The notes: generated from the sequence alone by a model not told the origin. 32,000 bases of DNA from Candidatus Saccharimonadota bacterium (GCA_020160975.1 JAIUPJ010000001.1:60001-92000); one strand, 5' to 3'; positions 3,479-26,657 are shown, numbered from the stretch's first letter. Program-made: numbers and translations.

Positions 3479-3553
3479 AGGGGTATAGTATAACGGCTAA
3501 TATAAAGGTCTCCAAAACCTTAGATCGTGGTTCGATTCCACGTACCCCTGCCA
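3479..3553 (+). tRNA. tRNA-Trp (anticodon CCA), atypical AT-rich copy with encoded CCA
   Basis: Manual cloverleaf: AGGGGTA TA GTAT AACGGCTA ATAT A AAGGT CTCCAAA ACCTT AGAT CGTGG TTCGATT CCACG TACCCCT G CCA. All stems pair. The features are A1-U72 and G73 as in bacterial tRNA-Trp, plus a 4-nt variable loop. Length is 75 nt. Confidence 0.85.
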
Positions 3554-3555
3554 TA

Positions 3556-3588
3556 GAAAAACGACGACCATTTGGTTGTCGTTTTTCT
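3556..3588. terminator. Bidirectional rho-independent terminator-like hairpin after tRNA-Trp-1
   Basis: GAAAAACGACGACC-attt-GGTTGTCGTTTTTC, with an A-run 5' and a T-run 3'. Confidence 0.6.
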
Positions 3589-3610
3589 ATATACTGGAGT
3601 TGTCTGGTGT

Positions 3611-3735
3611 CGAGCCTAGATCGCGACAGCTTGCTGGCGCATAGATCTAGGTGCGGCTAATCAAGATTGACCGAAGGAGCTTGCTCATTCGCAGCAATCG
3701 CAGATTATACCTTAGTATTCCTAGTGCCCCTGCCA
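3611..3735 (+). ncRNA. tRNA-Trp-derived structured element, unit A (candidate tRNA-like sRNA or decayed tRNA copy)
   Basis: The 3' 27 nt (ACCTTAGTATTCCTAGTGCCCCTGCCA) align to tRNA-Trp-1 from the anticodon-stem 3' strand to CCA with a 10-nt deletion. It shares the D-loop string CGGCTAAT. Hairpins are at 3615-3651 (CCTAGATC/GATCTAGG with an inner CAG-CUUG-CUG) and 3673-3690 (GAAgGAG-CUUG-CUCaUUC). It is homologous to unit B with compensatory stem changes. Confidence 0.45.
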
Positions 3736-3739
3736 AGAA

Positions 3740-3767
3740 AATACGGTAACCGAAAGGTTGCCGTATT
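3740..3767. terminator. Terminator-like hairpin after unit A
   Basis: AATACGGtAACC-GAAA-GGTTgCCGTATT. The loop is a GNRA tetraloop on the + strand, flanked by A-rich and T-rich runs. Confidence 0.5.
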
Positions 3768-3793
3768 TACTTGGCCACATGGATGCGGAGGAT

Positions 3794-3922
3794 TGAGTTT
3801 CGATCTGCGGATTGCTTCAGGAAGGAGCGTAGATCGAAGTGCGCTAACCAAGTTTGACCGAGGGAGTTCGCTCACTCGCAGCTAGTGAATATTATAACTT
3901 AGTATTCTTCGTGCCCCTGCCA
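3794..3922 (+). ncRNA. tRNA-Trp-derived structured element, unit B (paralog of unit A)
   Basis: It ends in ...ACTTAGTATTCTTCGTGCCCCTGCCA. Hairpins are at 3799-3838 (TTCGATCT/AGATCGAA) and 3860-3877 (GAGgGAG-UUCG-CUCaCUC). The linker and 3' tail are roughly 85% identical by eye to unit A. Confidence 0.45.
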
Positions 3923-4209
3923 AACTGGATAGATCTCCATAGTGAAGTCTTTTTTTGTTTCCTTCGCCTCCGTTATTAATATTGTTTTCAATAGTTTTGG
4001 TTAAAATAGTACGCTGTAAGTATATCTCCTGGCTGTATGAATATCTCTCTTTCTATGCACACGAGTGGTGTAACTATTGAAAAATGTGAAGGTTTTGATT
4101 GTACTGTCATGGGGATTAGGCTACTAATACCATAATAACAGAAGACTATGACGCCGAATGTGCGAGAAAACATGGGTCTTCTTTTAGTGTTCAGCTTTCC
4201 GAACATCAT
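3923..4209 (-). pseudogene. Decayed paralog of the ApbE-like gene at 13571..14278 (frame-disrupted, internally deleted)
   Basis: 3915-3990 aligns by eye to 13641-13720, for example CTGCCAAACtGGATAGATCTC versus CTGCCAAACaGGATAGATCTC. GTTTTGGTTAAAAtaGTACGCT aligns to 13846-13868 in a different frame, which implies a deletion of about 125 nt. The 73-aa ORF 3988..4209 is only the residual frame. Confidence 0.5.
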
Positions 4210-4335
4210 GCCAGAGAACTAGCTATCAACCTATTATACTATGCATAAACCGCGCCCAAACCCCAAACTATTATGGTCCATTACGTTTATGGTGTATAAT
4301 CATTTCAACAGTTCAAGTTGGAGTAAATATAATTG

Positions 4336-7300
4336 ATGATGCGAATTTTTCGGGTAGTACTCCGGGTCTGGCACCATTCTAGGCTAGGCTTCATATTTGT
4401 CTCTATTTGCAGATGGTTCTATCTGTTTATGCGTAAACTCTTCACAGCTCCTCACCGTGCAGCCTATCAGCGCTTTTCGTGGTATCAGAGATGGAACAAT
4501 GGAACCGTTCTAAGCAGGCTACACATTCCACTCTTTCCCCTAGCGGCTGTCATCAGTACTACGTTAGTTGTAGTTGGTGTTTTTTTCATGTCGGTCAACG
4601 CCCTGTCCGACATTACGGACGTATGGGATTTCAGCGATAATTCAGACTACGCGGTATCTGACGGAGTGGAGGTGGTTGATTCTGCAGCCAAGCTTAAGTT
4701 TAACGAATATGCCGCCGACAGCGAGACGGTCGGTCTTTATCACTTTAATGAAATTAATGGCAGTACTGCCAGCGACAGTTCGTCTTACGCCAATTCCGCT
4801 ACGGTTTTTGACTCGGTTTTTGACGGGGGTATCCTTAACAACAGTTTGAGGCTGGACGGCAGCCTGAGTCGTGCGGTTGTTCCTAGTTCTCCATCCCTTA
4901 AGCTCACCCGGGACAATACAATCGAAGCATGGACAAAATTTGATAACTCATTTTCAACCAGCGCCGTACGGCGGCAGGGGATTGTCGACAAGGGCGACTA
5001 CCAGATGTACTTTAATAACGAAACTGGTAAGCTCACCTACGAGCTAGCCGACAAGAACGCCAGCGGCTGGACTCAGGCAGGCGGTAACAATGTTAATAGC
5101 AGCTGGGATCAAAGCGGCAACCGTTCCGTCAATGCGCAGGTCAAGATTGGTACAGATATTTTTGTAGGAATAGGAACTGATATAGGTGACGCTGAGGTTT
5201 GGAAATGGAGCGGTACGAACTGGAGCAAGATTGGCGGCGGCACGCCTGCTATCAACGGGAGCTGGGATGCCAACACCTACGAAGGAGTTTATTCACTGGC
5301 GACTGATGGAACCAACCTTTACGCCGGGCTCGGCACGGGTACCGGCGAAGGCGAAGTGTGGATGTGGAACGGGACGGCCTGGGCGAAAATCGGCGGCGAT
5401 AGCGTTAATGGAGGCTGGACGAACTACGCCGAGCAGGTGTGGATGCTTGATTATTTTGGTGGCAATTTATACGCAGGTCTAGGCAACACCGCCGGCGACG
5501 CAGAAATATGGAGATGGAACGGGACGGCCTGGACGAAAATTGGCGGCGACAACATTAACGCAGGCTGGACCACTGTGTACGAAGCAGTTACCGGTCTCAC
5601 TAACGACGGCACGAATCTCTACGCTGGACTTGGATCAACGGCTGGTGATTCTGAAGTGTGGATGTGGAACGGGTCGAGCTGGAGTAAGATTGGCGGCGAC
5701 AGCGTAAATGGGGGCTGGGATACAACCATAGAGACCGTCCGAAGCCTAAAGCATTTTGGCGGTAACCTGTATGCAGGCCTGGGTGACACAGCTGGCGACG
5801 CAGAAGTTTGGCGGTGGAACGGATCCGCGTGGACGAAAATCGGCGGCGACGCAGTGAGCGGAAGCTGGGCCAATGCAACCTACGAGCAAGTTACCGCTTT
5901 TGCATGGGATGGCACCAACCTGTATGCAGGGCTAGGAATCGGCAACGGCGACGGTGAGGTCTGGCGGTGGAACGGATCCGCGTGGACGAAAATCGGCGGC
6001 GACGCGCTAAGCGGTAGCTGGACAGCGAACCAAGGAGACGCAGTTAATTCATTACTATTTAATGATGGAAAGCTCTATACCGGTACATACGACGCGGCCG
6101 GCGATGGCTTATTCTACAGCTTTAATGGCACCAGCTGGACGCAGCTAGGCGGCGCATATGTTAATGAAAGTTGGGGTATGTACGGCGTCGGTTCAATGCA
6201 AGTAATGCAAGCTCAGGGTGGTTATCTCTACGCAGGGACGGGCACCGCGGCAGGCAATGCGCTCGTTTATCGCTTTGACGGTACTAGTTGGGAGCTGGTA
6301 GGTGGTCAGGGGGTTAACTCAAGTTGGAGTCCTTTTGCCCGATCGGTCGTGTATAGCATGGCAAGCTTTCAGGGCAACTTATACGTCGGCCTCGGCAACG
6401 GAGCCAACAATGCGGAACTTTGGCGCTGGGATGGAAACAGCTGGACGATCATAGCCGGTAATACGGTTGGCAGTAGTTGGGGCAGTAATTATGAGGAAGT
6501 TGACGCCCTAGCGACCGATGGTCAGTATCTATATGCTGGGCTCGGCAACAGCGCTCAAGATGGAGACGTATGGCGGTATGACGGCTCTGCTTGGCAAAAA
6601 ATTGGCGGCGATAGCCTGAACGGCGGTTGGACAACGGGAAATAACATTTATAATATTTATTCTCTGGCGGTTTACAAAGGGAAACTTATAGCCGGCCTAG
6701 GCCGCACTGCAGGACAGGGGCAGGCATGGTCATGGAATGGTTCAGCGTGGACAAAAATTGGCGGCAATGGCGTAAATGGCAGCTGGGATAGCGCTGGCAA
6801 TAACACTGAATCTGTCGAGAGTCTAATTACTTACAATGGTAGGCTCTATGCCGGATTAGGAGCCACGACAGGAGATGGTGCGGTCTGGGAGTATGATGAT
6901 GCATCGTGGCAGAAAGTCGGTGGCGACGAACTTAATGATAGTTGGGTATCTGGTACCTACGAAAGAGTAAAAACACTGAGTGTCTATAATGGTGATCTGT
7001 ACGCAGGGCTTGGCAGTACTGTGTCTCGCGGTGAAGTCTGGCGTTATCGGTCTGGTGTGTGGGAAAAAATCGGCGGGAACGGCATAAACAGTGGCTGGTC
7101 AAACGCCATTGAAGAGATTAGGTCGTTTAGCGCATATAAGGGTAAATTTTATGTTGGTCTCGGTACAACCGCAGCCGCCGATGCGCAGGTATGGAGTTGG
7201 GGGAATAATGCATTCTTAGAGTCAAATACCTCATCTTGGGATAATGATTGGCATCATGTAGCAGCAAGCTACGACGGCTCAACTATGAAACTATATGTTG

Positions 7301-10300
7301 ACGGTAGCGAAGACGGATCACGAACAGTTGCCGTTCAGATCGCCGAAAATGACCGGAGCCTACTCATTGGTGATGCGTACGGCGGGCGTGAATACGGCAA
7401 ACCAAGCGGTAATTTTGATGGCTTGATAGATGAACTGCGCATCAGCAACGTTGCTCGTACGGCGTTCAATACCGAACCTTTTTCAGATGATGCCGAGACA
7501 GTGCAGCCAGTCGCGGCTATACGTAAAGATGGCATATGGCATTGGGATGAATTCAGCCACATTACTTCTGGCGGCGGAACGGTTAAGTATAGATTGTCTG
7601 ACGATGAAGGCGCCAGCTGGAAATACTGGGACGGTACTACCTGGACAGTTTCTAGTGATCTGGGCATGACCAATACAGCGAGTGAGGTCGATGATAATAT
7701 AGCAGATTTTCCGGTGACGTTTGGCGGCCTGCTGTGGCAGGGCGTCCTACAAGGCGACGGTAATCAACGTGTGACGCTGAGCAATGTCACCGTGAAATCA
7801 ACTTCAGATGATACACTACCAGACACCAGCGGCCTGGCTATTACTGCCAAAAAGGCACATGGTGGCGCTACCTTAACAGACAGCGCATGGACGAATGGCT
7901 CGTCACCCGAATTTAACTGGTCTGGCGCGAGTGATGGCGACTCCGGCCTTGCCGGGTATTGTCTCTACATCGGTACAGACCAAACAGCCAACCCGACCAC
8001 CACAAAAGGCATGCTTGGTACGAGCCCGGTACTCACCGGTGATAAGTGTCAGTACATTGTGTCAGCCTCAACGCTTGACCTTTCATCGCCAGGCGCCTTA
8101 GCCTCGGCCCTCACGAGCAGCAACGACTTTTATTACCTACGTGTGAGCGCTATCGACAAAGCCGGCAATATATCAACCGACATTAAAACCTTTAGTTTTA
8201 AGTTTGATAACACAGCACCGTCAACCCCGGGATTCATCAGCGCTCCGTCTGGCTTCGTCAGCAACAAAGCCGTGACGCTTAGCTGGCCGACTACTGGTGG
8301 CGATGCTCCGGCCGATGCTAATTCTGGCTTGGCCGGCCTACAGTACCGCATAGGGCCTTCGGGCACATGGTACGGAGCCGCGCACGCAGGCACGGGTGAC
8401 CAGACCGATCTACTGACGAATAGCGGCAGCTACACCATGCAAGATCCGCCCGACTTCGCCAATCTTGTTGACGGTATCAACACCGTATACTTCAGAGCAT
8501 TCGACACTGCCGGAAATATTTCAACTGGTTTTGCAACCGCAGCTATCAAGCTCAACACTAGTGGCGCGCCGAGCGAACCGCTTAGTATCTCGGCCAGCCC
8601 AAGCACTAATTCCACCAACTCGTTTAGTTTTAGCTGGAGCCCACCGAACACCTTTGTCGGTGATGTCAATAACTTGACCTATTGCTACACCGTTAATGCG
8701 GCTCCGAATGCCGGCAACTGTAGCTACACCGGTGCAGGCAATACCAGTTTACCCTCAGGCGCATATGCCACTCAGCCAGGAATTAACACACTCTACCTAG
8801 CGGCTAAAGATGAATCCGGTAGTATTAATTACTCTAATTACGGGACGGCAGAATTTACCGCCAATACGACCGCGCCAGGGCTACCACTCAACGCCGACAT
8901 TGCCGACGTCTCCATTAAATCTACCAATAAGTGGCGTCTGGCTCTCACTTGGGACGAGCCGACCAGCCAGGGGTCGGGGGTCGCCAAATACGATATTTAT
9001 AGATCAACCGATGACGACCAATATTCATACGTTGGCACCAGCTCAAGCACGACTTATATTGACGCAGGTCTACAGCAAATTACGTATCACTATAAAGTTA
9101 AAGCGTGTGATAATACTAACAACTGCGGCGCCTACAGCAGTAGTGTCAGCTATCTACCGACAGGTCGGTTCACCGACCCAGCCGCTCTCGTCGCCGAACC
9201 AGAGGTGTCTGACATTACCACCCGAAAAGCAACGATTCGGTGGAGTACCGACAGGGCAAGCGACTCAAAAATTGCTATCGGTACGACCAGCGGTCAGTAC
9301 GGCCCATCGGAGGTTTCAAACTCAGACCAAGTCAGTGCACATGAGGTCAATCTCGACAACCTCGCTGCCGGCACGACGTACTACTATGTGGCGAGGTGGA
9401 CTGACGAAGACGGTAACACCGGTAACAGCCAAGAATTTACCTTCCGAACAGCTCCGCCACCAACGCTTAAGGAAATCACCGCCACGCTCGTTGGCCTAGA
9501 TGGCGTTACTATTCAATTCATCTCCAAAAACGCTACGAAAGTCGATGTACTATTCGGGCCATCAGAGTCATTTGGCGGTATCAAAACGATCAACACTTCG
9601 CTCGAAGAATCCGCCTACACTGTAAACCTCGATGCACTCACCGACGGTACTAAGTACTTCTATAAGATCGTCTCGTATGACAAAGAGGGAAGCAAGTACG
9701 ATGGTAGCACTCAGTCATTCACGACTCCGCCAAAACCAAGAATTAGCGAGATGAAGTTCCAACCGATACCAGGAAAACCAACCAGCACACAGCAGGTAAC
9801 TTGGCGCACGAACGTACCATCTACTACAAGGGTGGTATACGGTCTCCTAGGAAGCGGGGGAGAAGAGAAGACTGTGCCTGGCATGACGGCCGAGCACACA
9901 ATCGAAATCAACGATCTAATTGATGATAGCCAGTACTTCATCGTGGCACAGTCACGCGATGCAAACGGTAATCTAGCGGTATCAGATCGGCAAGTATTTA
10001 AGACGGCGGAGGACACCAGGCAACCGACGATCGATAATGTATCGATTCAGACATCCATCGATGGCGCCGGTTCATCGGCAAGAGGACGAGTTGTTATATC
10101 TTGGCGTACGGACGAACCGGCGACGAGCCAGGTCGCATATGAGCAGGGGTCCGATAAAACAATCTTCAGTACCAAAACGCCCGAAGACACCGGCCTGTCA
10201 TTCGAGCACGTCGTCATCGTTACTGATCTTCCTACTTCCCGGGTATACAGTATCAAGCCAATTTCATACGATAAATCACGAAATGAAAGCGACGGATCAG

Positions 10301-10383
10301 TAGAATCGGCTATCGTTGGTCGGGCTTCGGATGACATTCTAACGATAGTCCTTAATAGTCTCAAGGGTGTATTTGGATTCTAG
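4336..10383 (+). CDS. Giant membrane-anchored surface protein: N-terminal TM anchor, a LamG (concanavalin-like) domain interrupted by about 14 propeller-like repeats, then FN3 and purple-acid-phosphatase-N-like Ig-fold domains
   Basis: The 2016-aa ORF is uninterrupted. GGAG at 4320-4323 favours ATG 4336 (the ORF track uses TTG 4333). The TM segment is PLFPLAAVISTTLVVVGVFFMSV. LamG strands are LRLDGS..TIEAWTKF..GIVDKGDYQMYFNNETGKLTYE and later WHHVAASYDGSTMKLYVDGS..LLIGD..FDGLIDELRISN. The C-terminal half has repeated FN3-like units (e.g. TRKATIRWSTDRASDSKIAIGTTSGQYG...TTYYYVARWTDEDGN). The stop is TAG. Confidence 0.9.
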   Translation: MMRIFRVVLRVWHHSRLGFIFVSICRWFYLFMRKLFTAPHRAAYQRFSWYQRWNNGTVLSRLHIPLFPLAAVISTTLVVVGVFFMSVNALSDITDVWDFSDNSDYAVSDGVEVVDSAAKLKFNEYAADSETVGLYHFNEINGSTASDSSSYANSATVFDSVFDGGILNNSLRLDGSLSRAVVPSSPSLKLTRDNTIEAWTKFDNSFSTSAVRRQGIVDKGDYQMYFNNETGKLTYELADKNASGWTQAGGNNVNSSWDQSGNRSVNAQVKIGTDIFVGIGTDIGDAEVWKWSGTNWSKIGGGTPAINGSWDANTYEGVYSLATDGTNLYAGLGTGTGEGEVWMWNGTAWAKIGGDSVNGGWTNYAEQVWMLDYFGGNLYAGLGNTAGDAEIWRWNGTAWTKIGGDNINAGWTTVYEAVTGLTNDGTNLYAGLGSTAGDSEVWMWNGSSWSKIGGDSVNGGWDTTIETVRSLKHFGGNLYAGLGDTAGDAEVWRWNGSAWTKIGGDAVSGSWANATYEQVTAFAWDGTNLYAGLGIGNGDGEVWRWNGSAWTKIGGDALSGSWTANQGDAVNSLLFNDGKLYTGTYDAAGDGLFYSFNGTSWTQLGGAYVNESWGMYGVGSMQVMQAQGGYLYAGTGTAAGNALVYRFDGTSWELVGGQGVNSSWSPFARSVVYSMASFQGNLYVGLGNGANNAELWRWDGNSWTIIAGNTVGSSWGSNYEEVDALATDGQYLYAGLGNSAQDGDVWRYDGSAWQKIGGDSLNGGWTTGNNIYNIYSLAVYKGKLIAGLGRTAGQGQAWSWNGSAWTKIGGNGVNGSWDSAGNNTESVESLITYNGRLYAGLGATTGDGAVWEYDDASWQKVGGDELNDSWVSGTYERVKTLSVYNGDLYAGLGSTVSRGEVWRYRSGVWEKIGGNGINSGWSNAIEEIRSFSAYKGKFYVGLGTTAAADAQVWSWGNNAFLESNTSSWDNDWHHVAASYDGSTMKLYVDGSEDGSRTVAVQIAENDRSLLIGDAYGGREYGKPSGNFDGLIDELRISNVARTAFNTEPFSDDAETVQPVAAIRKDGIWHWDEFSHITSGGGTVKYRLSDDEGASWKYWDGTTWTVSSDLGMTNTASEVDDNIADFPVTFGGLLWQGVLQGDGNQRVTLSNVTVKSTSDDTLPDTSGLAITAKKAHGGATLTDSAWTNGSSPEFNWSGASDGDSGLAGYCLYIGTDQTANPTTTKGMLGTSPVLTGDKCQYIVSASTLDLSSPGALASALTSSNDFYYLRVSAIDKAGNISTDIKTFSFKFDNTAPSTPGFISAPSGFVSNKAVTLSWPTTGGDAPADANSGLAGLQYRIGPSGTWYGAAHAGTGDQTDLLTNSGSYTMQDPPDFANLVDGINTVYFRAFDTAGNISTGFATAAIKLNTSGAPSEPLSISASPSTNSTNSFSFSWSPPNTFVGDVNNLTYCYTVNAAPNAGNCSYTGAGNTSLPSGAYATQPGINTLYLAAKDESGSINYSNYGTAEFTANTTAPGLPLNADIADVSIKSTNKWRLALTWDEPTSQGSGVAKYDIYRSTDDDQYSYVGTSSSTTYIDAGLQQITYHYKVKACDNTNNCGAYSSSVSYLPTGRFTDPAALVAEPEVSDITTRKATIRWSTDRASDSKIAIGTTSGQYGPSEVSNSDQVSAHEVNLDNLAAGTTYYYVARWTDEDGNTGNSQEFTFRTAPPPTLKEITATLVGLDGVTIQFISKNATKVDVLFGPSESFGGIKTINTSLEESAYTVNLDALTDGTKYFYKIVSYDKEGSKYDGSTQSFTTPPKPRISEMKFQPIPGKPTSTQQVTWRTNVPSTTRVVYGLLGSGGEEKTVPGMTAEHTIEINDLIDDSQYFIVAQSRDANGNLAVSDRQVFKTAEDTRQPTIDNVSIQTSIDGAGSSARGRVVISWRTDEPATSQVAYEQGSDKTIFSTKTPEDTGLSFEHVVIVTDLPTSRVYSIKPISYDKSRNESDGSVESAIVGRASDDILTIVLNSLKGVFGF
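5090..7210 (+). repeat. Intragenic tandem coding repeat array of 13-14 units of 150-159 nt (50-53 aa), consensus GDAEVWRWNGSAWTKIGGDxVNGGW..YE.V.sL...GgNLYAGLG
   Basis: I counted 13 full W/Y-x-W/F-x-G-x-x-W-x-K/Q-I/L-GG cores plus one partial. Unit offsets are 5194, 5353, 5503, 5653, 5803, 5956... A 44-nt perfect copy occurs at 5809-5852 and 5962-6005. Confidence 0.9.
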
Positions 10384-10384
10384 T

Positions 10385-11167
10385 ATGAAAAGTACAAATG
10401 ACAGTTTAATTAGGGTTGAGAATGTGTCTCAAGAGTTCGGCACCGAAGATATGGTGGTACGGCCTCTCAACGATGTCAGCTTTTCACTCGCCAAAAACAG
10501 CTTTAACATCATCTACGGTCCGTCAGGCAGCGGAAAGTCCACGCTCCTCAACGTCCTTACGGGACTGCAATCGCCTACCAAGGGTAAAGTATATATCGAC
10601 AACAAGGATGTCTATGCCTTGTCGCGCGATGAGCTCGCCAATTTCCGGGCGAGCAGCCTCGGGTTCATTTACCAGACTAACTACTGGGTAAAAAGTCTAA
10701 ATGTACTCGACAACGTTGCGATGTCAGCATACTTTTCAGGATTAACGCGAAAAAGCGCCCATAAGCTTGCTTACGAGGCGCTTGAGATGGTCGATATGAA
10801 ATCTTACGCTCACAAGTATCCGACCATGCTTTCAGGTGGCGAGCAGCAGCGAATCGCAATAGCCAGGGCTCTAGCTACTAACCCGTCATACATTATAGCC
10901 GACGAACCGACTGGAAGCCTTGATAGCACCAACGGCGATAAGATCATGAGCCTCCTTGTACGTTGTCAGCGCGACCTTGACCGTACTATTATTCTAGTGA
11001 CGCACAACCTTGAATATATGCCGCTAGCCGATAAATTGCTTCATATTGAAGACGGCCGAGTCAAGGAAATAAACGAAGGTTCAATCAAACAGACCACGGA
11101 CGTACTGTTCGCCGACATGCGCTCGCGAATGCATAGACTAGAAAAGGCACAAACAGATGTCAAGTAA
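10385..11167 (+). CDS. ABC transporter ATP-binding protein, MacB/LolD/FtsE-type
   Basis: Walker [10 protein letters not shown], signature LSGGEQQR, Walker B IIADEPT and H-loop VTHN are present. ATG 10385 starts 1 nt after the giant gene's TAG. The ORF-track start at 10367 is an upstream extension. Confidence 0.9.
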
Positions 11168-12365
11168 AAACGAGTTCAAATTAGTCAAACGCAGAGTGCT
11201 CATGTTCATGGCATGGCGCAACCTAACTCATAAAAAAATGAGATCATTCCTAACACTTTTTGGTATCGTGATAGGTATAGGCGGTATCTATTTTTTGATT
11301 TCGCTTGGTCTCGGTATCCAGCAACTGGTTACCGATAGAGTTGTAGGAGGCGAATCGGTGAAATCGATCGACGTCACCACTGCAAACGAAAAAAATATCA
11401 GCTTAGACTCCGATACCTATACCAAATTAAAGAATTTACCCCATGTTATAGGCATTGGCGGTATGTATTCCTTCGCTGGGTTAGTAAATCTACGAGGTTC
11501 TAGTGTCGATGCGGTCGTGTACGGAGCGAACGACAGTTACCTTAAAATGCTCGATCTCAAGCTGCTCAGCGGTAGTCTCATAAAAACCGGATCAGACAAC
11601 GACATCCTTATTAATCAATCAGTGCTGCGTTCGCTTGATTATAAGAAGCCCGAGGACGCAATTGGTAAAAAAATTACACTTATCATACCGTCTCTAGGGG
11701 TAGAAGAAGTACAATTTAAAAAAGAATTCACCATCGTCGGGGTGAGCGCCGATCAAAGCGGCGCAGAGTTGTACGTGGCTTCTGATATTCTTATGGCTGC
11801 AGGAGCCGAGAACTTCAACCAGATACGCATTGAGGCAAGTGATGTCGATGGGGCTCGGTCGCTTCGTTCCCAAATTAAAGCCCTGGGCCTAACAACCACT
11901 TCCCCAATCGATACGGTAGATCAAATCGACCAAGTCTTCAAATTCTTCAATCTCATACTTGCAAGTTTCGGCGCCATTGGCATGATAGTAGCAATTTTAG
12001 GTATGTTTAATACTATTACCATCTCTCTACTTGAGCGAACAAGGGAGATAGGGCTTATGGTCGCTCTCGGAGGGCGGGATACCGACATGCGGATGCTGAT
12101 AATCTTTGAGGCAACGCTCCTTTCGGTTATAGGTTCGATCCTAGGAATCCTCAGCGCTACTATTTTTGGCCAGCTCATCAATCTTGGGTTGAACCTTTTT
12201 GCGCGGTCACGCGGTGTAACCGAAGGTTTTCAGCTTTTCGCCACGACCTGGTGGCTCGTTCTTGGCACAATAGGATTCATGATGCTCGTCGGTTTGGTTG
12301 TGGTCTTCATTCCTGCAAGGCAGGCTGCCCGCCTGAACCCAATCGACGCATTAAGAAGAGAATAG
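11157..12365 (+). CDS. ABC transporter permease, FtsX/MacB family
   Basis: 402 aa. One N-terminal TM is followed by an extracytoplasmic domain of about 230 aa and three C-terminal TMs (FtsX-like: ...ISLLERTREIGLMVALGG...). It overlaps the ATPase gene by 11 nt. Confidence 0.85.
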   Translation: MSSKNEFKLVKRRVLMFMAWRNLTHKKMRSFLTLFGIVIGIGGIYFLISLGLGIQQLVTDRVVGGESVKSIDVTTANEKNISLDSDTYTKLKNLPHVIGIGGMYSFAGLVNLRGSSVDAVVYGANDSYLKMLDLKLLSGSLIKTGSDNDILINQSVLRSLDYKKPEDAIGKKITLIIPSLGVEEVQFKKEFTIVGVSADQSGAELYVASDILMAAGAENFNQIRIEASDVDGARSLRSQIKALGLTTTSPIDTVDQIDQVFKFFNLILASFGAIGMIVAILGMFNTITISLLERTREIGLMVALGGRDTDMRMLIIFEATLLSVIGSILGILSATIFGQLINLGLNLFARSRGVTEGFQLFATTWWLVLGTIGFMMLVGLVVVFIPARQAARLNPIDALRRE

Positions 12366-13565: not shown

Positions 13566-13648
13566 AAGGGCTAGACATTCCTCGTCTCCAAAATAGTGTT
13601 TTCATTAACAGAGTAAAAAGTTCTATCTTCATCCATGTACCCCTGCCA
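13566..13648 (+). pseudogene. Decayed tRNA-Trp copy (pseudo-tRNA)
   Basis: 13632-13648 TCCATGTACCCCTGCCA matches the tRNA-Trp-1 3' end (3537-3553) at 16 of 17 positions. 13584-13593 GTCTCCAAAA equals the anticodon stem/loop string of both intact tRNA-Trp genes. 13564-13570 ATAAGGG resembles the 5' junction ATAGGGG. The D arm is lost and about 19 extra nt sit between the anticodon loop and the 3' end. Confidence 0.55.
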
Positions 13649-14278
13649 AACAGGATAGATCTCATTTTTGAGGTCTTTCTTGTTTATTTCACCTCTGTTA
13701 TTTTCGTTCTTTTCAGCGGTTTTGTTAAGCACTTTTTGAGATTCCATAATTTGGCGTGTTTCGTCACTTCTTTTTGCTATAGATTCAGCCAAGAATGACA
13801 ATTTAACAGATACAGAATTGCTTGCGTAAACGATTTCATCAAAGAGTTTGGTTAAAACCGTACGCTTTGCGTCATTACCCATATCAGCGTCTGTGTATTG
13901 AGCCTTTGCGTGCTGTGTAAGCTCCATGATCTCTACTTCGTCCCAAAAATCCGCCTTTACATTTGCTGCGTTTTTACGCATGCCATAGCCGCGTTTAAAC
14001 AGTTCACCGCCCACTGAAATGTAGAAAACGCCGTCGCTGAGAGCGTGTATTTTTTGAGAAAAAGCGAACATGTCTAGCAGTTCTTGAGGTGGGTGGACGA
14101 GCTTTTTCTTACAATTAAGCTAGCCAATCAGCGAAGTGTCTGTGAAGCGTGTGTAGGCATCGTTAAAACTCTGGATTTCGTGAGCTAAAAATGCTGAATC
14201 GTTTGGTGCCCATACGCCGTCGAGTCGTTCGATCCACCAGTGTGTGCCAAGTGCGTCAATTTCAAATATATCGGTCAT
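13571..14278 (-). pseudogene. ApbE-like FAD:protein FMN transferase, truncated or chimeric, with an in-frame TAG
   Basis: My translation from ATG 14278: MTDIFEIDALGTHWWIERLDG...EIQSFNDAYTRFTDTSLIG*LNCKKKLVHPPQELLDMFAFSQKIHALSDGVFYISVGGELFKRGYG...DMGNDAKRTVL. This matches the ApbE N-terminal pattern (MGT; S-x-l-s-x-lN; dGaFDiTvgpL..lWGf; D-l-G-g-i-a-K). The TAG is at 14120-14122, in frame with the 166-aa ORF. The C-terminal motifs TSG and HiiDP are absent. The last ~26 codons are the reverse complement of the pseudo-tRNA. Confidence 0.6.
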
Positions 14279-14283
14279 TTATT

Positions 14284-14792
14284 TTAAGAGTGAGCCTGAG
14301 AACGAATAGTATCAAGCACTTGGTCGAAAGCGTAGGTAGTCAGACTGGCGCCGCCTATTCGACTGGGACTTAAGCTGGCTAAATCCTGCCCAGGAACAGT
14401 GTCTTTGAGTGCGCTTTCAAGCCTGCTGATGTACATTTGCTATTCGTGGTCAGAATAATCGTCGTTCACAAACACGTCTGTGTCCTTGCCGCCGCTTAGT
14501 GTGACTTTGACGCTAATGCTATTTGTAGCGCCATGTGGCACGTCGTACGAAGCGCTGGCAGTGTACGTACCATCTTTGTAGCCACTAGTTAACGTGGAGG
14601 TGCTCACTGGTGTCGATGAAGTAGAAGGGGTTGAAGACACAGTCGAAGTTGTCGAGGTGGAATCTTGTGGAGTCGAGGCTATTTTGGCTCTGAGATCATC
14701 GCTACCGCCAAAATACAAAACGCACCTCCCAGCCCGGCCGCAATCAGCACTGCAGAGGTGCCAACAATAAAGGCCTTTTCTTATGGTTTCAT
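14284..14792 (-). pseudogene. FMN-binding-domain (FMN_bind) membrane or secreted protein, multiply disrupted
   Basis: The signal-anchor reads MKP*EKAFIVGTSAVLIAAGLGGAF, with TAA at codon 4. A 1-nt frameshift in a T-run leads into the ORF 14440..14718 (S/T-rich linker, YKDGTYTASASYDVPHGATNSISVKVTLSGGK). An in-frame TAG follows, then QMYISRLESALKDTVPGQDLASLSPSRIGGASLTTYAFDQVLDTIRSQAHS, which resembles the flavinylation-site region D.vSGAT.TS. Confidence 0.65.
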
Positions 14793-14877
14793 GTTTCTAT
14801 ACTACTGCAACAAGGCTTAAATAATAGTTAATAAACAGCACCTCCTTTTGCATTTTTCATTTTTAAATTAAATACTA

Positions 14878-16266
14878 CTACTGCTGAGGGGGAGTACGAT
14901 CAGGGTCATTCGACTGAGCGGGCTGCTTGGTACTTACAGTTGAGAGAGGAGAGCTATTTTGGACAGAATTTGCCCGTCGTCTTTTTGCGATCCGCCAAAG
15001 AACATAAGCGAGACAAAGTATAATAAGTGTTCCGAGCACAGCTAGCACTACAACTTTAAGGGTAGACACGGGCTTGTCCTTTGCGCTGTTTACAGACACC
15101 GACTTGCTATCTGAGGGGGTTTTATGTGCGGGAAGAACTCCACCTTCAGTCGTTACTTTCATCTCGAAAGGCAACGCCGCACCTGTTAGCGCAGCTTTAC
15201 CCTGTTCGTCCGTAAGGTAAAAGCTCACCTTGTATACGACGCGTGTTGGCTTTGCGAGTAGGGTAGTTTGATACGCTGCGTCCTGGTCTATCTGCAGAGG
15301 CGTCATGTCGCCATTAGCCTTAAGGAACTCTTCTCTTGGATATGTCTGAAGACTTTCAAGAGTATCTTGTCGCATAATATCCGCAACAATGCGGGTGTTG
15401 TATGTATTTTGAGCGAATGGAGTATCTCTAACGCTAGTTTTGAGGGTAAAATCTACTTTCTGCTTAGCCAGCAGATCAAATGCATAGTATCTTTCTTGCG
15501 GAAACAAAATAGTGTCTGTGTAGTTTGTGTCTGCAAGCATCACTGGCGCATCCTCCGGTCGTAGTGTGCCGGCAATCGGAACACCCTTAAGTGTAAAAAG
15601 ACTTACCTCTCGCTGGGTCAACGCGGATACCGTTGAACCAAGTTTATTTAAGTCGTTTATATCAAAGTATGTTCCACCACTATTTTCTGCAATACAAGAT
15701 AGTTGTTGCCGAGCAGCATCGTCAACGAGAAGTCCCAGAGTATTTATTTTTACTCTTACACCCCTAGATTGAAGGCTTTTGGCCACCTCGCATGCGTTTG
15801 GGGTTTCGCAAGTATCGATGCCATCCGAAAGTAAGATGACTGACTTAGGGCCTTCTCCCGTAAAATCGCCCGCTACTTCTTGTAGGCTTTTACCCATAAG
15901 AGTCCAACCTTTCGCCTGGATCGCATCGACGGACGTTTTTATAGCAGCGACATTATTTGCTTTGGGCGCATTTAGCCTTACCGTGTCTTGGCAACCGGCA
16001 GCTTGATCGGTGTCTGGAACCTCACTACCGTACACACGCAGACCTACTTGCGTGTCGGCAGGAAGACTATCTAAGGTCGACTTAAGGGCAGTCTTCGCTC
16101 GATCTATACGCATAGTAGAACCCTCATCCTTCGCGAGCATCGAAGAAGACGCATCGAGTATGAACATAAGCTGCCCATTGTTTGCAGCCTGTACGGTGTT
16201 CGCATGTATAGCCATAGCGGCGATTACACCTAACACTGCTATAGCGGTTATAATTCTTTTTTGCAT
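14878..16266 (-). CDS. von Willebrand factor type A (VWA) domain protein with signal peptide and C-terminal TM anchor
   Basis: The MIDAS-type motif is MFILDASSSM...LLSDGIDTC. The C-terminal TM is LKVVVLAVLGTLIILCLAYVLW, followed by RRR. The likely start is ATG 16266 (MQKRIITAIAV) behind AAAGGA. The ORF track starts 9 codons upstream at 16293. Confidence 0.85.
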   Translation of the reverse strand: MQKRIITAIAVLGVIAAMAIHANTVQAANNGQLMFILDASSSMLAKDEGSTMRIDRAKTALKSTLDSLPADTQVGLRVYGSEVPDTDQAAGCQDTVRLNAPKANNVAAIKTSVDAIQAKGWTLMGKSLQEVAGDFTGEGPKSVILLSDGIDTCETPNACEVAKSLQSRGVRVKINTLGLLVDDAARQQLSCIAENSGGTYFDINDLNKLGSTVSALTQREVSLFTLKGVPIAGTLRPEDAPVMLADTNYTDTILFPQERYYAFDLLAKQKVDFTLKTSVRDTPFAQNTYNTRIVADIMRQDTLESLQTYPREEFLKANGDMTPLQIDQDAAYQTTLLAKPTRVVYKVSFYLTDEQGKAALTGAALPFEMKVTTEGGVLPAHKTPSDSKSVSVNSAKDKPVSTLKVVVLAVLGTLIILCLAYVLWRIAKRRRANSVQNSSPLSTVSTKQPAQSNDPDRTPPQQ

Positions 16267-16394
16267 TATCCTTTTCCCTTCATATACTGACATTATACCA
16301 TGTAAAAATACCCTATCTGCAGATATGGTGGACTCGAATCTCTTTGTTCTACATCTTCGAAGTTTTTTGTATTACATAGGAGATTCGGTATAAT

Positions 16395-16590
16395 ACCACC
16401 TTGGTATTTTCTGAAAAGACTTGGGGGAGCATAACTGGGCGAAGAGCGGTCTCCTGAAACCGTAGACTGCAGGTGAGAAATGCCACTGGCATTTTGCAAG
16501 GGAGTCAACTCTTGCAAACTTATTTGCAAAATGTTGCGACAGGGTCGCCAAAGGTGACCGAGTCCTGTCAGATTCGAACCTGATCATTTA
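16395..16590 (+). other. Hairpin-dense ORF-free intergenic region (candidate ncRNA or operator cluster) upstream of tRNA-Trp-2
   Basis: A candidate promoter is TTGTAT(16367)-16 nt-TATAAT(16389). Hairpins: TCTCCTG/CAGGtgAGA (16450-16478), AAATGCC-act-GGCATTT (16478-16494), TTGCAAGG/CTCTTGCAA (16494-16517), and GACAGG-GTCGCC-AAA-GGTGAC-cgagt-CCTGTC (16538-16568). TTGCAA occurs three times. Confidence 0.3.
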
Positions 16591-16606
16591 TAATATAGTT
16601 TGTCGA

Positions 16607-16682
16607 AGGGGTGTAGCTCAATTGGTAGAGTAGCGGTCTCCAAAACCGGGTGTCGTAGGTTTGAGTCCTGCTACCCCTGCCA
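16607..16682 (+). tRNA. tRNA-Trp (anticodon CCA), canonical bacterial-type copy with encoded CCA
   Basis: AGGGGTG TA GCTC AATTGGTA GAGT A GCGGT CTCCAAA ACCGG GTGTC GTAGG TTTGAGT CCTGC TACCCCT G CCA. It closely resembles the E. coli tRNA-Trp architecture as I recall it. Length is 76 nt. Confidence 0.9.
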
Positions 16683-16694
16683 CGAGATTATAAG

Positions 16695-16726
16695 AAGTCT
16701 ACCTCCGTTGAGCGTAGACTTTTTTG
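16695..16726 (+). terminator. Rho-independent terminator after tRNA-Trp-2
   Basis: AAGTCTAC-ctccgttgagc-GTAGACTT followed by TTTTT. Confidence 0.7.
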
Positions 16727-16787
16727 CTACGAAAAAGTTTGGTTGTCCTACTACCCCTAAAATGACCCTGTCTGATAAGCTATATTT

Positions 16788-17211
16788 ATGGCTGAAAATG
16801 ACCAAAACATGCCCGAACCCGCATTGAAATATATGCGCACACCCGAGGAGTCGCGAGACGTACTTTTGTCTTGGCTACGAGAAGACATGGTGTTTTTTGC
16901 TGCTGGCGCGTGTCATATTTTGGCACATATGTTCCTTTTGCATAACCCAAACGAGGATTTTGATCTGATTTATACTAAACCTGTCATAAACAACCTGGCA
17001 ACCATATGTACGTGAGCGGCGGGACATGGGCGTTCGATTTCAACAGGTGGTCGCTCGAAAAAGACCTGCTAAAAATTAATGAAACGTTTGCAAAAGATAG
17101 ATATCCAAACTGGAACTATGAGTGCATCGTTATAGAGAAGGTTTGCCGGAGTATCTGAAGAATTCTCATCATCTGCGAGCGCCAGAATATTTCCTAGATC
17201 TTCCATGGTAA
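16788..17211 (+). pseudogene. Hypothetical protein gene split over three reading frames (two -1 frame changes)
   Basis: Frame a, 16788-17015: MAENDQNMPEPALKYMRTPEESRDVLLSWLREDMVFFAAGACHILAHMFLLHNPNEDFDLIYTKPVINN... Frame b from about 16995: (P)GNHMYVSGGTWAFDFNRWSLEKDLLKINETFAKDRYPNWNYECIVIEK. Frame c from about 17137: EGLPEYLKNSHHLRAPEYFLDLPW*. Each segment reads like a natural continuation of the one before. Confidence 0.5.
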
Positions 17212-17372
17212 CGATCATATGATTATATTCATAAGCTTCCCTCGGCTGCACCAGAATTAGGTGACGCATGATCGTTTCTGGAAATACTATTATGCAATAA
17301 ATAGGTTTGGTATTTGTCCGATAGCTCTTGCCAATATAAATGACATACTATCAGATGTATCTCATTTATATT

Positions 17373-17402
17373 TTGTATGTCAAATGCAAAGAGCAGTATA
17401 AT
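17373..17402 (+). promoter_or_regulatory. Candidate sigma70-type promoter for the clpC-like gene
   Basis: TTGTAT-18 nt-TATAAT, about 28 nt upstream of ATG 17430. The same -35 hexamer appears in the candidate promoter at 16367. Confidence 0.35.
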
Positions 17403-17429
17403 AGATGTAATGTAATAGGAGAACCTTAC

Positions 17430-20078
17430 ATGAATGAACGTTGTGACATATGTGGCATCAGACCAGTCACTCATCGAGTGCAAGTCACGCAAAATGGCCA
17501 GATGGCCGAACTAAATGTCTGTGACATTGACTACCAGAGGCTACGGCAACAAGCTGGCTCAAGTTCTCCATTCGAGTCATTATTTTCTGGCAGTAACCCC
17601 TTCAATTCTTTTGAGCAAGCCTTTGCCCGCCCCGAGCGACAACAGGCCGCAGGCCTTGAAGCACTCTTGTCAGACACTGCCAAGGATATTATCCAAGAAG
17701 CCGGTAGTGTGGCGCACAAGTTTGGCCGGAGCGAAGTAGATACTGAGCACTTGCTTTATGCCCTCGCTGACAACGACATCGTTGCTGAAATCCTCAAGCA
17801 ATACAAGCTGAAACCGAGTGATATTAAGGGTTATATTGATGCTAATGCGCCAAAAGGTAAGCAGACTACTACTGAAGATGAGATGGGTGTCAGTCCGCGT
17901 GTTAAAAGCGTACTGCAAAGCGCTTACCAAATTTCGCGCGAACTCGGCCACAGCTACATCGGTCCAGAGCATCTTTTGATTTCGCTTGCCGCCGAGCCTG
18001 ACGGCATGGCACACGAGGTGCTCGAAAAGTACGGCTTGAGTCCTGAAAGTCTCCGCGCCAAAACAACCAAAGTGGTTGGGCAAGGAGCTGAGGGTGGTAA
18101 GGTCGAAACTCAGACGAACACACCACAGCTCGATAAATACTCACGCGACCTGACGCAGCTTGCCAAGGCTGGTAAACTTGACCCAGTAATTGGCCGAAAC
18201 GATGAAATTCAAACGACTATCGAAATTTTAAGTCGCCGCACCAAAAACAACCCAGTACTGATTGGTGAGCCAGGCGTCGGTAAAACTGCTATCGTCGAAG
18301 GCCTGGCGCAGCGAATTGAAGCAAAAGAAGTACCTGAGGTGCTTGAGGGTAAACGCGTCGTTGAGCTTTCACTTATGAGTGTGATTGCTGGAGCCAAATA
18401 TAAGGGTGAGTTTGAGGAGCGTATTAAGGCTGTCATCGATGAGATCGTCGAGCACAAAGACGAGTTAATTGTGTTTGTGGACGAATTGCACACTATAGTC
18501 GGTGCGGGCGGTGGCGGCTCTGAGGGTGGCATGGATGTAGGCAACATCATGAAGCCAGCACTCGCCCGTGGCGAACTGCATCTTATCGGAGCAACAACCT
18601 TGAATGAATATCAAAATTATATCGAGAAGGATAGTGCTCTCGAGCGACGGTTCCAGCCCGTTATGGTGCCAGAGCCGACGATTGAGCAGGCGATTGAGAT
18701 CATTCGCGGCCTCCGCGACAGTTATGAAGCCCATCACAAAGTTAAGATTGATGATTCAGCCGTCACTGCCGCCGTTCATTTGAGTGATCGTTATATTACA
18801 TCTCGGTTCTTACCTGATAAAGCCATTGACTTGCTTGACCAAGCGGCAGCTCGCGTCCGCATTGCCAGCGATACACGCTCAGCCGAAATTGCTAAATACG
18901 AAGATGATATTGCCCGTCTTTCGCGCGAAGAAGAGTCAGCTCGCAATCACAAGAAAACCGATGAAGCCAAGAAACTGAAAAAAGAAATTGAGACTCTGAC
19001 AAAGCAAAAAGATGAGTTAATGGAAGCTTGGAAGCGCGAGAAAGGTGTTTCGACAGCCGTAGTCACCAGTAGCGACATCGCCCAGATTGTTAGCAAACTC
19101 ACCGGCGTGCCGGTCACTGAGCTCACCGAAGAAGAGAAGCTAAAGCTTCTGGCACTTGAAGATAAGCTTCACCAACGGGTTGTTGGTCAAAACGAAGCCG
19201 TTCAGGCAGTGAGCGATGCGGTTCGTTTGTCGCGTGCTGGACTGACGCAGGGTTCTCGTCCAATCGCAAACTTCCTCTTCCTTGGCCCAACCGGTGTTGG
19301 TAAAACAGAGCTTGCTAAAGCCTTGGCTTGGTCAGTCTTTGGCGATGAAGATGCAATGATTCGTATCGATATGAGCGAATATATGGAGCGCCATGCTGTT
19401 AGTCGTCTTGTTGGTGCGCCTCCAGGGTACGTCGGCTATGATGAGGGTGGCCAGCTCACTGAAGCAGTGCGCCGCCGCCCATACAGCGTTGTTTTGCTTG
19501 ATGAAATAGAGAAAGCTCACCCAGATGTTTATAACATTCTGTTGCAAGTTTTTGACGATGGTCGGTTAACCGACGGTAAGGGTCGTGTAGTGGATTTTAC
19601 GAACACGATTATTATTGCTACCAGCAACCTTGGTAGTGCCCTAATTATCGAAAACGATAAAGCCACAAGCAAAGATAAGAAAGATAAAAAGGCGCTGAAA
19701 GCCGAGCTCATGGAAGTGCTGCGCGGCCATTTCCGTCCGGAGTTTATAAACCGCATCGACGATATTATCGTCTTTGACAGTCTGAATGAAGACGAGATTA
19801 AAAACATCGTCCGTTTGCAGCTCGAAAAAGTCACCCAGCTACTTGCCGAAAAAGGTGTATCTATTACGTTTAGTGACGCACTAGTAGATGATCTTGCGAA
19901 GCGTGGGTACCAACCAGAATTTGGCGCCCGCGAACTACGCCGTCTCATCAAAACCGACATCGAAAACTTGTTAGCTCGTAAATTGCTTGCGGGAGAGCTC
20001 AAAGAAGGTGCTCGTGTCACCGTTAATTACTCAGCCAACGATGGAGTAACTATCGATCAGGTAAAGTCACGCAAATAG
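17430..20078 (+). CDS. clpC: Class I Clp/Hsp100 AAA+ ATPase, ClpC-type (short M-domain), with an N-terminal McsA-like zinc-ribbon extension
   Basis: Start ATG 17430 follows AGGAGA; the ORF-track start at 17340 is an AT-rich upstream extension. There are two Clp_N repeats, D1 ([15 protein letters not shown]), a coiled-coil M-domain of about 60 aa, and D2 ([26 protein letters not shown]). The N-terminus [31 protein letters not shown] resembles the McsA CxxC...C zinc fingers. Confidence 0.9.
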
Positions 20079-20224
20079 TACTCTAAGAGGATCATATTAC
20101 CACAAACCCCCTGAAGACTATTTAGCTCGCGGTACGTTTGATAATCATCCTTCAGCCCCTGCCAATAAAAAACTTCACTCAGTGAATTATTATACCGTTG
20201 AAGAATCGAATGCGCGTTAGCCAT
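20057..20224 (-). CDS. Small hypothetical protein, 'WQG' family copy 2 (55 aa; below the ORF-track cutoff)
   Basis: My translation: [55 protein letters not shown]. Its 3' end overlaps the clpC 3' end by 22 nt. It is a paralog of 12526..12663. There is no clear SD. Confidence 0.4.
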   Translation of the reverse strand: MANAHSILQRYNNSLSEVFYWQGLKDDYQTYRELNSLQGVCGNMILLEYYLRDFT

Positions 20225-20286
20225 GAAACTACTTTATACTCACATTTTGATATAACATGTATAGATAACAAATATGAAGGAGGCGC

Positions 20287-20703: not shown

Positions 20704-20707
20704 CACA

Positions 20708-21046: not shown

Positions 21047-21284
21047 CCTTTTTAGACCACAATATGTTTGATAATCATCCATTTTTTGCCTGGATAAAAT
21101 CAAAGTCCCAGCATGAACGCTTGGCGATGGCAGTCTCAAAACGCGAACGGCTACGACCCCGCTGACTAGCAACAACCCAAGCAATGACCCACTTTATGAT
21201 CCCAAGTTGAACGTTTAGTTTATCTATATCCACGCAAATATGTAATCCTGCAAAATGCATCCGTAGCAAAATATTCAACAGCAT
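21047..21284 (-). pseudogene. 'WQG' family copy 3, frameshifted and degenerate
   Basis: 21064-21078 GTTTGATAATCATCC is identical to 20137-20151. In one frame it encodes ...MDDYQTYCGLKRLV*, while the upstream part (ORF 21075..21284, ...RGRSRSRFE...FDFIQAKNG*) is in another frame. The WQG codons are mutated. Confidence 0.4.
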
Positions 21285-21724: not shown

Positions 21725-21764
21725 TGTCAGGGCCAAACACAGCATTGATCAACTCAAGGTAACG

Positions 21765-26655: not shown

Positions 26656-26657
26656 CC

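Follow-up and report, generated by a model that had tools for sequence, protein, structure and literature searches.

A conserved three-gene operon joining a giant lectin-like propeller protein to a MacB-type ABC pair in Saccharibacteria: a candidate envelope module

MacB-type (type VII) ATP-binding cassette (ABC) transporters act at the outer face of the membrane by mechanotransmission and reportedly have no transmembrane substrate channel. In Gram-positive MacAB-like operons such as yknXYZ and spr0693-0695, the genes run in the order adaptor, ATPase, permease, and FtsX-type ectodomains are known to hold helical segments of partner proteins such as EnvC, PcsB and RipC. Here, we analyzed a stretch of 32,000 nucleotides (nt) from a Candidatus Saccharimonadota bacterium (GCA_020160975.1 JAIUPJ010000001.1:60001-92000), denoted as the window, in which positions 4336 to 12365 hold an operon of three genes encoding a giant protein of 2,015 amino acids (aa), an ABC ATPase and a MacB-type permease.

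Bacillus subtilis YknXYZ, Streptococcus pneumoniae Spr0693-0694-0695 and MacAB-TolC are of the same ABC type as this pair, with a separate nucleotide-binding domain (NBD) and a four-helix FtsX-fold permease carrying the full Porter/Sabre ectodomain. The giant gene occupies the place of the adaptor gene in MacAB-like operons, and the order of partner, ATPase and permease is alike. However, the partner here is a 2,015-aa LamG/propeller/FN3 protein in which no HlyD or lipoyl domain was found, and there is neither an outer membrane nor TolC. FtsEX, together with EnvC, PcsB, CwlO or RipC, is a non-transporting type VII ABC system that holds a helical segment of its partner and changes the state of that partner by ATP hydrolysis, and it serves as our model for the C-terminal helix of the giant protein. 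In contrast with FtsEX, the ectodomain in this locus is a full MacB_PCD, and the partner has neither a coiled coil nor a hydrolase domain. LolCDE and LolDF also share the ABC type, and LolD (208 bits) is the best NCBIfam match of the ATPase, with weak LolF/LolCE similarity in the permease, but all of these scores are below cut-offs and the organism is a monoderm, in which we know of no Lol pathway. The RTX adhesins LapA, MpIBP and SiiE resemble the giant protein in their giant Ig-like rod, a ligand module nested in a split beta-sandwich, a dedicated ABC in the operon and an important C-terminus. Their systems consist of a six-helix exporter ABC, a fusion protein, an outer-membrane channel and RTX repeats and have no N-terminal signal peptide, whereas the present locus combines a predicted Sec signal with a MacB-type ABC and has no RTX repeats. 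The GH74 xyloglucanases, Elp2, Aip1 and the LamG lectin 4qvs belong to the same fold class as the head of the giant protein, whose blade repeat, unlike those of tandem-propeller proteins, matches no Pfam family.

The three-gene operon and its conservation

The genes of the operon and the associated signals are as follows.

4336..10383, + strand: giant protein gene, 2,015 aa from the ATG at 4336 (open reading frame, ORF, 4333/4336..10383)
4320..4323, + strand: GGAG ribosome-binding site, 12 nt before ATG 4336, read from the sequence
4305-4333: promoter-like TCAACA-17-TATAAT, a consensus match only
10385..11167, + strand: ABC ATPase gene, LolD/MacB-NBD-like, 260 aa (ABC_tran, 8e-31)
11157..12365, + strand: MacB-type (type VII ABC) permease gene, 402 aa, ATG at 11157
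11244-11882: MacB_PCD of the permease, aa 30-242, with transmembrane segment 1 (TM1) at aa 34-52
11964-12341: FtsX domain of the permease with TM2-4, aa 270-395

The ORF map bore out the gene layout described in an earlier, sequence-only reading of this DNA: the giant ORF of 2,015 aa ends with a TAG at 10381-10383, a single spacer base precedes the ATPase ATG at 10385, and the permease gene overlaps the ATPase gene by 11 nt (11157-11167). The chance of 2,015 sense codons in a row is ~e^-97, and the same three gene models are present in public gene calls of identical contigs from several metagenomes.

The earlier reading had also proposed that the giant protein and the pump form a dedicated pair and had named co-occurrence in other genomes as the way to check it. 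We surveyed one genome per GTDB species; at least 145 species have a relative, and 80 loci were fetched. To pick these loci, we used two peptide patterns from domain D5 of the giant protein, which may favour typical members, and start codons were estimated from alignments. Among the 77 loci with enough downstream sequence to be counted as informative, from Saccharibacteria and WWE3, an ATPase homologue lies right after the giant gene in 76, with a gap of -11 to +25 nt (median +1), and the permease is next in 72 loci with a median gap of -4. In the single exception, L082, a histidine kinase gene stands between the giant gene and the ABC ATPase gene. Homologues of the genes flanking the operon in the window are almost never present at the survey loci, and clustering of all neighbouring ORFs returned the three genes and shadow ORFs only, so that the conserved unit is exactly three genes. 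The proposed pairing thus came through the co-occurrence survey, at near-zero spacing and with variable flanks.

The trio is kept in a complete WWE3 genome at 40% identity, where the permease has 737 aa, and an exhaustive search found it in the most divergent orthologues as well, namely P0134 (41%), P0162 (37%) and the 2,343-aa variant P0121. No MacB pair adjoins the giants P0126, P0129, P0133 and P0138, which have the blade repeat in common and a different architecture. The link is therefore old and specific to this protein family, and in combination with the conserved near-zero spacing it speaks for co-translation and a joint function. Judged from gene order and sequence, the three genes are one conserved, presumably translationally coupled envelope module, and the functional linkage of the giant protein and the ABC pair is strongly supported.

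Two-component genes were seen between the giant gene and the ABC pair at two loci. The histidine kinase of L082 (4017-6074) is of the CHASE4-PAS type, and L093 (11564-11941) has a receiver-only response regulator; these genes hint at regulation of the ABC pair. At L088 and L092, the giants P0126 and P0138, of 2,844 and 5,201 aa with the same blade repeat, are followed by a similar set of four genes of ~236, 346-351, 255 and 522-535 (fn3) aa. The 346-351-aa gene of L092 has a weak WxLIP_PGBD match, and both four-gene sets resemble the WxL/Csc-type surface-complex clusters of Firmicutes.

A pattern search of the ATPase picked out Walker A (GPSGSGKS) and the signature motif (LSGGE), and IIADEPT and LVTHN, read by eye, fit Walker B and the H-loop; with its motifs intact, the ATPase is predicted to be competent. 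Hydropathy placed four transmembrane segments in the permease at aa 34-52, 266-284, 314-345 and 360-385. Pfam matched a full MacB_PCD (profile positions 1-206 of 207) and also the FtsX domain, and the nearest solved structures are MacB 5lil (aa 23-402, 3e-23), YtrF 9o9x and Spr0695 5xu1. The pair therefore has the marks of the MacB-type (type VII) superfamily, that is, a motif-bearing NBD and a four-TM permease with a large ectodomain between TM1 and TM2. The best NCBIfam matches of the ATPase are LolD, FtsE, DevA and MacB, all below their cut-offs. The scores of LolD (208 bits against 308), lolCE (53 against 362) and lolE (17 against 540) do not identify a LolCDE system, nor do those of FtsE (179 against 265) and the FtsX models (19-31 against 225-255) identify FtsEX, and the MacB equivalog reached 88-160 bits against a cut-off of 966. 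Because all NCBIfam equivalog models are far below cut-off, we place the pair in the MacB/FtsX (type VII) superfamily and in no characterized system. No HlyD-type domain turned up in the window ORFs scanned, the giant protein included, which sets the locus apart from MacAB-TolC, and no RTX or HlyD families were found by Pfam or NCBIfam, which sets it apart from type 1 secretion. PADLOC gave generic ABC/AAA similarity for the ATPase only and none for the giant protein; with no specific match to a PADLOC defence model, a role of the module as an anti-phage defence system was rejected.

Architecture and conservation of the giant protein

From its N-terminus to its C-terminus, the giant protein comprises the following parts.

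4336..4602, + strand: variable basic N-region and hydrophobic segment (aa 69-87), aa 1-89, with a V/T-x-A site at the end
4603..5085, + strand: conserved N-terminal strands and N-terminal part of the LamG jelly roll, aa 90-250, 13 strands in the AlphaFold2 (AF2) model
5086..7221, + strand: 14 blades of ~51 aa each, aa 251-962 (AF2, regular expression, Foldseek)
7222..7518, + strand: C-terminal part of the LamG jelly roll (WHHVAASYDG...), aa 963-1061 (Pfam Laminin_G_3)
7519..7827, + strand: small beta-sandwich with an Asp-box-like motif (S-D-D-E-G-A-S-W), aa 1062-1164 (AF2 and sequence)
7828..10311, + strand: rod of eight Ig/FN3-like domains (D2-D9), aa 1165-1992 (AF2, Foldseek)
10312..10380, + strand: C-terminal amphipathic tail, aa 1993-2015 (A-I-I-G-R-A-S-D-S-V-L-T-I-V-L-N-T-L-K-x-V-F-G-F/L-COOH)

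AF2 models of both halves were built on a family alignment of 29 sequences. The model of aa 88-1075 (predicted local distance difference test, pLDDT, 87.9; predicted template modelling score, pTM, 0.85) contains exactly 14 four-stranded blades, in agreement with the approximately 14 counted before, and a regular expression found 13 full repeats of the blade motif W-x-W-N-G-x-x-W-x-K-I-G-G ... L-Y-A-G-L-G. The best Foldseek matches of the N-terminal half in the PDB were tandem 7-bladed propellers, namely Elp2, Utp proteins, GH74 and Aip1, at 10-15% identity and template modelling (TM) scores of 0.27-0.40. Based on secondary structure and Foldseek, the 14 blades are best read as two 7-bladed propellers (7+7), a predicted fold that points to no particular function. 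The blade region (5086-7221) also has 15 N-x-S/T sequons, many blades carrying one within the conserved W-x-W-N-G-T/S-x-W turn; the sequons may be purely structural or may be glycosylation sites.

Pfam matched Laminin_G_3 (5e-18), Pur_ac_phosph_N and fn3 in the giant protein. The Laminin_G_3 match (66 bits, cut-off 27.6) aligns aa 933-1043 with profile positions 41-147, and Pfam places LamG only downstream of the propellers. When aa 96-262 and 953-1062 were fused, the score rose from 66 to 78 bits, with profile positions 1-40 still unmatched. We then compared a family profile of chimeras, in which aa 96-250 were joined to aa 962-1062, with PDB sequences, and this profile aligned end to end with a single LamG domain, 4qvs_A residues 1-219 (E 2e-9). 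Because the chimera profile covers 4qvs_A end to end, the double propeller appears to be nested in a loop of LamG, an arrangement of which, to our knowledge, there is no other example. The LamG jelly roll is thus split, with the packing of its two halves resting on secondary structure, Foldseek and profile alignment; the lectin-like LamG domain named in the earlier reading is present, but it is not contiguous, being divided by the propellers. A complete jelly-roll LamG domain is recognizable by profile, and the type of fold suggests carbohydrate binding. Split sandwich domains with nested ligand-binding modules are a known design of giant adhesins (PMC13059738, ref. 39). As had been proposed from the sequence, no enzymatic domain was recognized in the giant protein by Pfam, NCBIfam, PDB sequence search or Foldseek.

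Downstream of the head, the model of aa 1050-2015 (pLDDT 84.6) shows nine beta-sandwich domains in a string, the first of which (aa 1062-1164) has no Pfam match. The earlier count of at least seven FN3/PAP-N-like Ig folds is borne out as a lower bound and now stands at nine sandwich domains. Foldseek matched the rod to FN3/Ig rods only (titin/MyBP-C, gp130, contactin, fibronectin), the per-domain matches were weak (Big_3/Big_13, fn3, Pur_ac_phosph_N), and the last four domains resemble the N-terminal domain of purple acid phosphatase. The Cys pairs 1209/1238, 1450/1462 and 1591/1597 are invariant in 29 homologues, and an extracytoplasmic location of the giant protein fits because these three pairs are invariant.

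Conservation in the giant protein is lowest over the first 89 residues, with a pairwise identity of 19-21%. At their end, position -1 is Ala in 27 rows of the 29-homologue alignment, and in every row once two of them are shifted by one residue; position -3 is occupied by V/T/L/A/I/M, uncharged and mostly aliphatic, among the 29, and a well-conserved [L/A]-[S/P]-D-L-x-D-x-W-D-F stretch follows the V/T-x-A site. In the WWE3 homologue, the equivalent place is taken by a short classical signal peptide. Taken from these alignments, aa 1-89 are probably a long cleavable Sec signal peptide, cut after Ala89. The single N-terminal anchor described earlier thus gives way to a probably cleaved signal peptide with a conserved site of the signal-peptidase type. 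No lipobox was noticed at the N-terminus, although no lipobox search was run.

At the other end, the last ~20 residues are kept in 29 of 29 aligned homologues, at the extreme end of the protein. A related amphipathic tail is present in WWE3, L082, P0121, P0127, P0130, P0134, P0151 and P0162, whereas the relative P0135 ends elsewhere, unlike the tail-bearing orthologues, and the tail is absent from P0126 and P0133, giants that are not linked to MacB. The tail has a hydrophobic moment of 0.37 at 100 degrees and is too short for a membrane helix. No LPXTG-like motif was found in the last 120 residues, and the tail ends ...VFGF-COOH with no basic end. The statement that the protein has no C-terminal sorting signal therefore holds for the LPXTG type, but it had overlooked the conserved amphipathic tail. 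In L076 (WWE3) and L093 (a deep-branching orthologue), the giants have a longer form of the tail (…FGFLGDIK, …FGFLRDIPGLQP). The permeases of these loci, at L076 16652-18865 and L093 13206-15452, have 737-748 aa as against ~400, with ~370 residues separating the FtsX domain from the part of MacB_PCD that is matched.

More than 500 homologues of the giant protein were found. The best 120 of them have 1,781-2,090 aa, 51-62% identity (one 99%) and 88-100% coverage, and every one of these with a source name comes from Saccharibacteria or Saccharimonadales; the 99%-identical locus, L007, is in a bioreactor metagenome-assembled genome (MAG) of Saccharibacteria. The guess of a patescibacterial origin was thus correct, the homologues being from Saccharibacteria MAGs. 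The Prokaryotic Genome Annotation Pipeline (PGAP) names homologues "LamG-like jellyroll fold domain-containing protein" or "fibronectin type III domain-containing protein". Over 61 loci, the giant protein and the ATPase have the same median identity to their window copies (55%), and the permease is at 47%; the giant protein exceeds the permease in 58 of the 61. The most conserved parts are rod domains D3-D6 and D8-D9 and the tail (64-73%), with the head at 58-60%, and the length and domain number are fixed. A host-specific adhesin on a passive spacer would not show this pattern, which suggests a conserved ligand and, for each domain, a definite contact of the sort found in structural or mechanical assemblies.

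In the annotation tables of Southlakia epibionticum, a cultivated epibiont from the mouth, no protein has PF13385 or PF16656. The essential FN3/VCBS proteins SEML1_0890/0891 of this species were considered as an orthologue and rejected, as they are small and unrelated, and in the species, for which transposon-sequencing (Tn-seq) data are available, MacB pairs adjoin small genes. The giant protein seems to be missing from this mammal-associated lineage, by annotation tables, which are not a rigorous measure.

A possible mechanism and its alternatives

Considering the architecture and the linkage together, we tentatively favour, at somewhat less than an even chance, a reading in which a type VII ABC transporter, acting from outside the membrane, docks or actuates a Sec-exported lectin stalk. 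The giant protein would cross the membrane through Sec on its own long N-terminal signal peptide, which would be cleaved, probably after Ala89. Outside the membrane, it would present a multivalent lectin-like head, the Asp-box sandwich and the rod of eight Ig/FN3 domains. At ~3.5-4 nm each, nine sandwiches would extend ~30-35 nm, enough for a monoderm wall, and the rod could carry the lectin-like head through that wall. The protein would end in an amphipathic helix of 20 residues. The MacB-type transporter would not transport the giant protein; its permease ectodomain would bind it, most likely through the conserved C-terminal helix, for which the FtsX-type ectodomains that hold the helical partners EnvC, PcsB and RipC offer a precedent. 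Binding would tether the stalk at the membrane, and ATP hydrolysis would be coupled by mechanotransmission to a change outside, which might be the assembly, holding or locking, release or movement of the stalk. The head would most likely bind a conserved glycan, either on the surface of a host or in the bacterium's own envelope.

Several points weigh against this picture. MacB-type pairs without the giant gene occur in the same genomes (L087) and in S. epibionticum (SEML1_0053/54), and because such pairs occur alone, MacB-type pairs can have an independent substrate. The physical contact of the giant protein with the permease is something we infer, and the glycan binding of the head is suggested by its fold type. 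AF2 gives the tail a confidence below 50, and the association of the extended tail with the 737-748-aa permease is confounded by phylogeny. Some homologues have Leu or Met at -3, which is not ideal for signal peptidase I; if the segment is uncleaved, the head would be membrane-proximal and the tail distal, and the geometry would be reversed.

The secretion of the giant protein by the pump, which the sequence-only reading had offered, is unlikely because the protein appears to have its own Sec-type N-terminal signal, which is classical in the WWE3 homologue, and because the MacB type is said to work without a substrate channel. An alternative that fares better, and that we regard as unlikely but credible, is a shared pathway without contact. 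The pair would export a separate substrate, such as a glycolipid, a wall or capsule precursor, a peptide or a toxic compound, as MacB, DevCA and HrtBA do, and the lectin-like protein would bind, organize or sense that substrate outside, so that the linkage reflects co-expression only. The commonest known pumps of the MacB family do handle small or lipidic substrates, the NCBIfam similarities are to LolD, DevA, bacteriocin-export and MacB models, some MacB pairs of Saccharibacteria stand alone, and a lectin-type head could bind an exported glycoconjugate. However, near-zero spacing and strict order that persist from Saccharibacteria to WWE3, with all flanks changed, rarely arise from co-expression alone, and such a pathway does not account for the conserved C-terminal tail or for a rod that is conserved domain by domain.

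Quite improbable, in our estimate, is an extraction of the kind carried out by LolCDE, which is of the same ABC type and extracts membrane-embedded anchors. An uncleaved N-terminal segment would be pulled from the membrane, and the giant protein would be released to the wall, the surface layer or the medium. The weak LolC/E and LolF matches of the permease and a juxtamembrane R-P-H..L..R..W-Y..W-H, semi-conserved in many homologues, speak in its favour. Yet the hydrophobic segment and the N-region are precisely the least conserved part (19-21%), where one would look for higher conservation in a specific extraction handle, the conserved Ala at -1 speaks for ordinary release by signal peptidase, the WWE3 homologue has a plain signal peptide, and the lolCE and lolE models remain far below their cut-offs.

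The giant protein could also be a host-specific adhesin next to an unrelated pump, the adjacency having no functional meaning, which we hold to be very improbable. Large FN3/concanavalin-like/propeller surface proteins are widely proposed as adhesins of Patescibacteria (PMC13059738; PMC10633639). However, adjacency in 76 of 77 genomes with unconserved flanks disfavours an unrelated pump, as do the ATPase-like conservation and the fixed domain number, which are unlike those of adhesins in an arms race with a host; the host protein EsrA, by contrast, has a highly divergent propeller (PMC13622651). Host attachment is a candidate role, with which the very even, ATPase-like conservation and the unchanging number of domains agree poorly. 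That the double propeller forms an enzymatic head, a GH74-like glycoside hydrolase degrading host or own polysaccharide, is hardly credible, since the GH74 xyloglucanases 2cn2, 1sqj and 7kn8 are among the top Foldseek matches (E ~1e-15) but the non-enzymatic tandem propellers Elp2, Utp and Aip1 score equally, neither Pfam nor NCBIfam nor the PDB sequence search matched any glycoside-hydrolase family, no Asp-box motif was seen in the listed blade repeats, and a GH74-type enzyme was rejected as generic tandem-propeller similarity (TM 0.27-0.30) without a sequence match.

The surrounding window and the implications of the module

Upstream of the giant gene lies a non-coding leader of 780 nt (3554-4335), in which an Rfam scan found no credible family. 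It has two direct repeats of 81 nt (3656-3736 and 3843-3923; 83% identical), whose 3' ends (TTCC..GTGCCCCTGCCA) resemble the 3' end of tRNA-Trp; the repeats may be scars of integrase-mediated insertions at a tRNA. The window has two different tRNA-Trp(CCA) genes, at 3479-3553 and 16607-16682 and 13 kb apart, which with their flanks give a 209-column alignment of 73% mean column identity, and an 18-nt inverted-repeat hairpin (3553-3590, 94% complementary) stands immediately 3' of the first. We considered the two as attachment-site duplicates of an island carrying the operon and rejected this, as they are different genes (73%) and the flanks of the module differ among species. The closely related strain L004 (JGI 3300055001) has the same giant, ABC and short-chain dehydrogenase/reductase (SDR) genes. 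It is without the segment of ~13600-22600, which holds a von Willebrand factor A (VWA) protein, the second tRNA-Trp, a ClpC-like ATPase, DUF1761 and TfoX_N, and reaches the Wzz cluster after different genes, so that ~13600-22600 of the window is strain-variable. A polysaccharide-biosynthesis cluster occupies 22830-31207, with Wzz, a Polysacc_synt_2 dehydratase, a DegT aminotransferase, an initiating sugar transferase, an unusual fusion of ATP-grasp and haloacid dehalogenase (HAD) domains (584 aa), GT4 and an EpsG-type polymerase.

The module can be described as a type VII ABC system whose giant partner is unprecedented, built from known folds that are nested in an unusual way. In the literature searched, we found no description of it, the remarks on large surface proteins being generic ones on adhesins and the annotations generic ones of FtsEX. 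Since Saccharibacteria are genetically tractable through natural competence (PMC10633639), the idea of the module is directly testable.

Patescibacteria account for a large part of the diversity of bacteria, and their attachment to hosts and life on them are little understood, with work to date centred on type IV pili and a few adhesins of oral strains. In the module, we have a specific candidate for a core function of the envelope in environmental Saccharibacteria, and one that is deeply conserved. In its fullest form, which we consider doubtful, the proposal would be that of an ATP-powered, wall-spanning stalk of ~35 nm with a 14-bladed lectin head, whose C-terminal helix is held by a MacB-type transporter and which works as a surface grappling or sensing device. 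Such a device would amount to a new class of type VII ABC machine, would go back to the ancestor of Saccharibacteria and WWE3 and would have a central part in the way environmental Patescibacteria engage the surface of a host or build their envelope. Taken all together, the giant protein may represent a new class of partner for MacB/FtsX-type machines in a bacterium that has no outer membrane.

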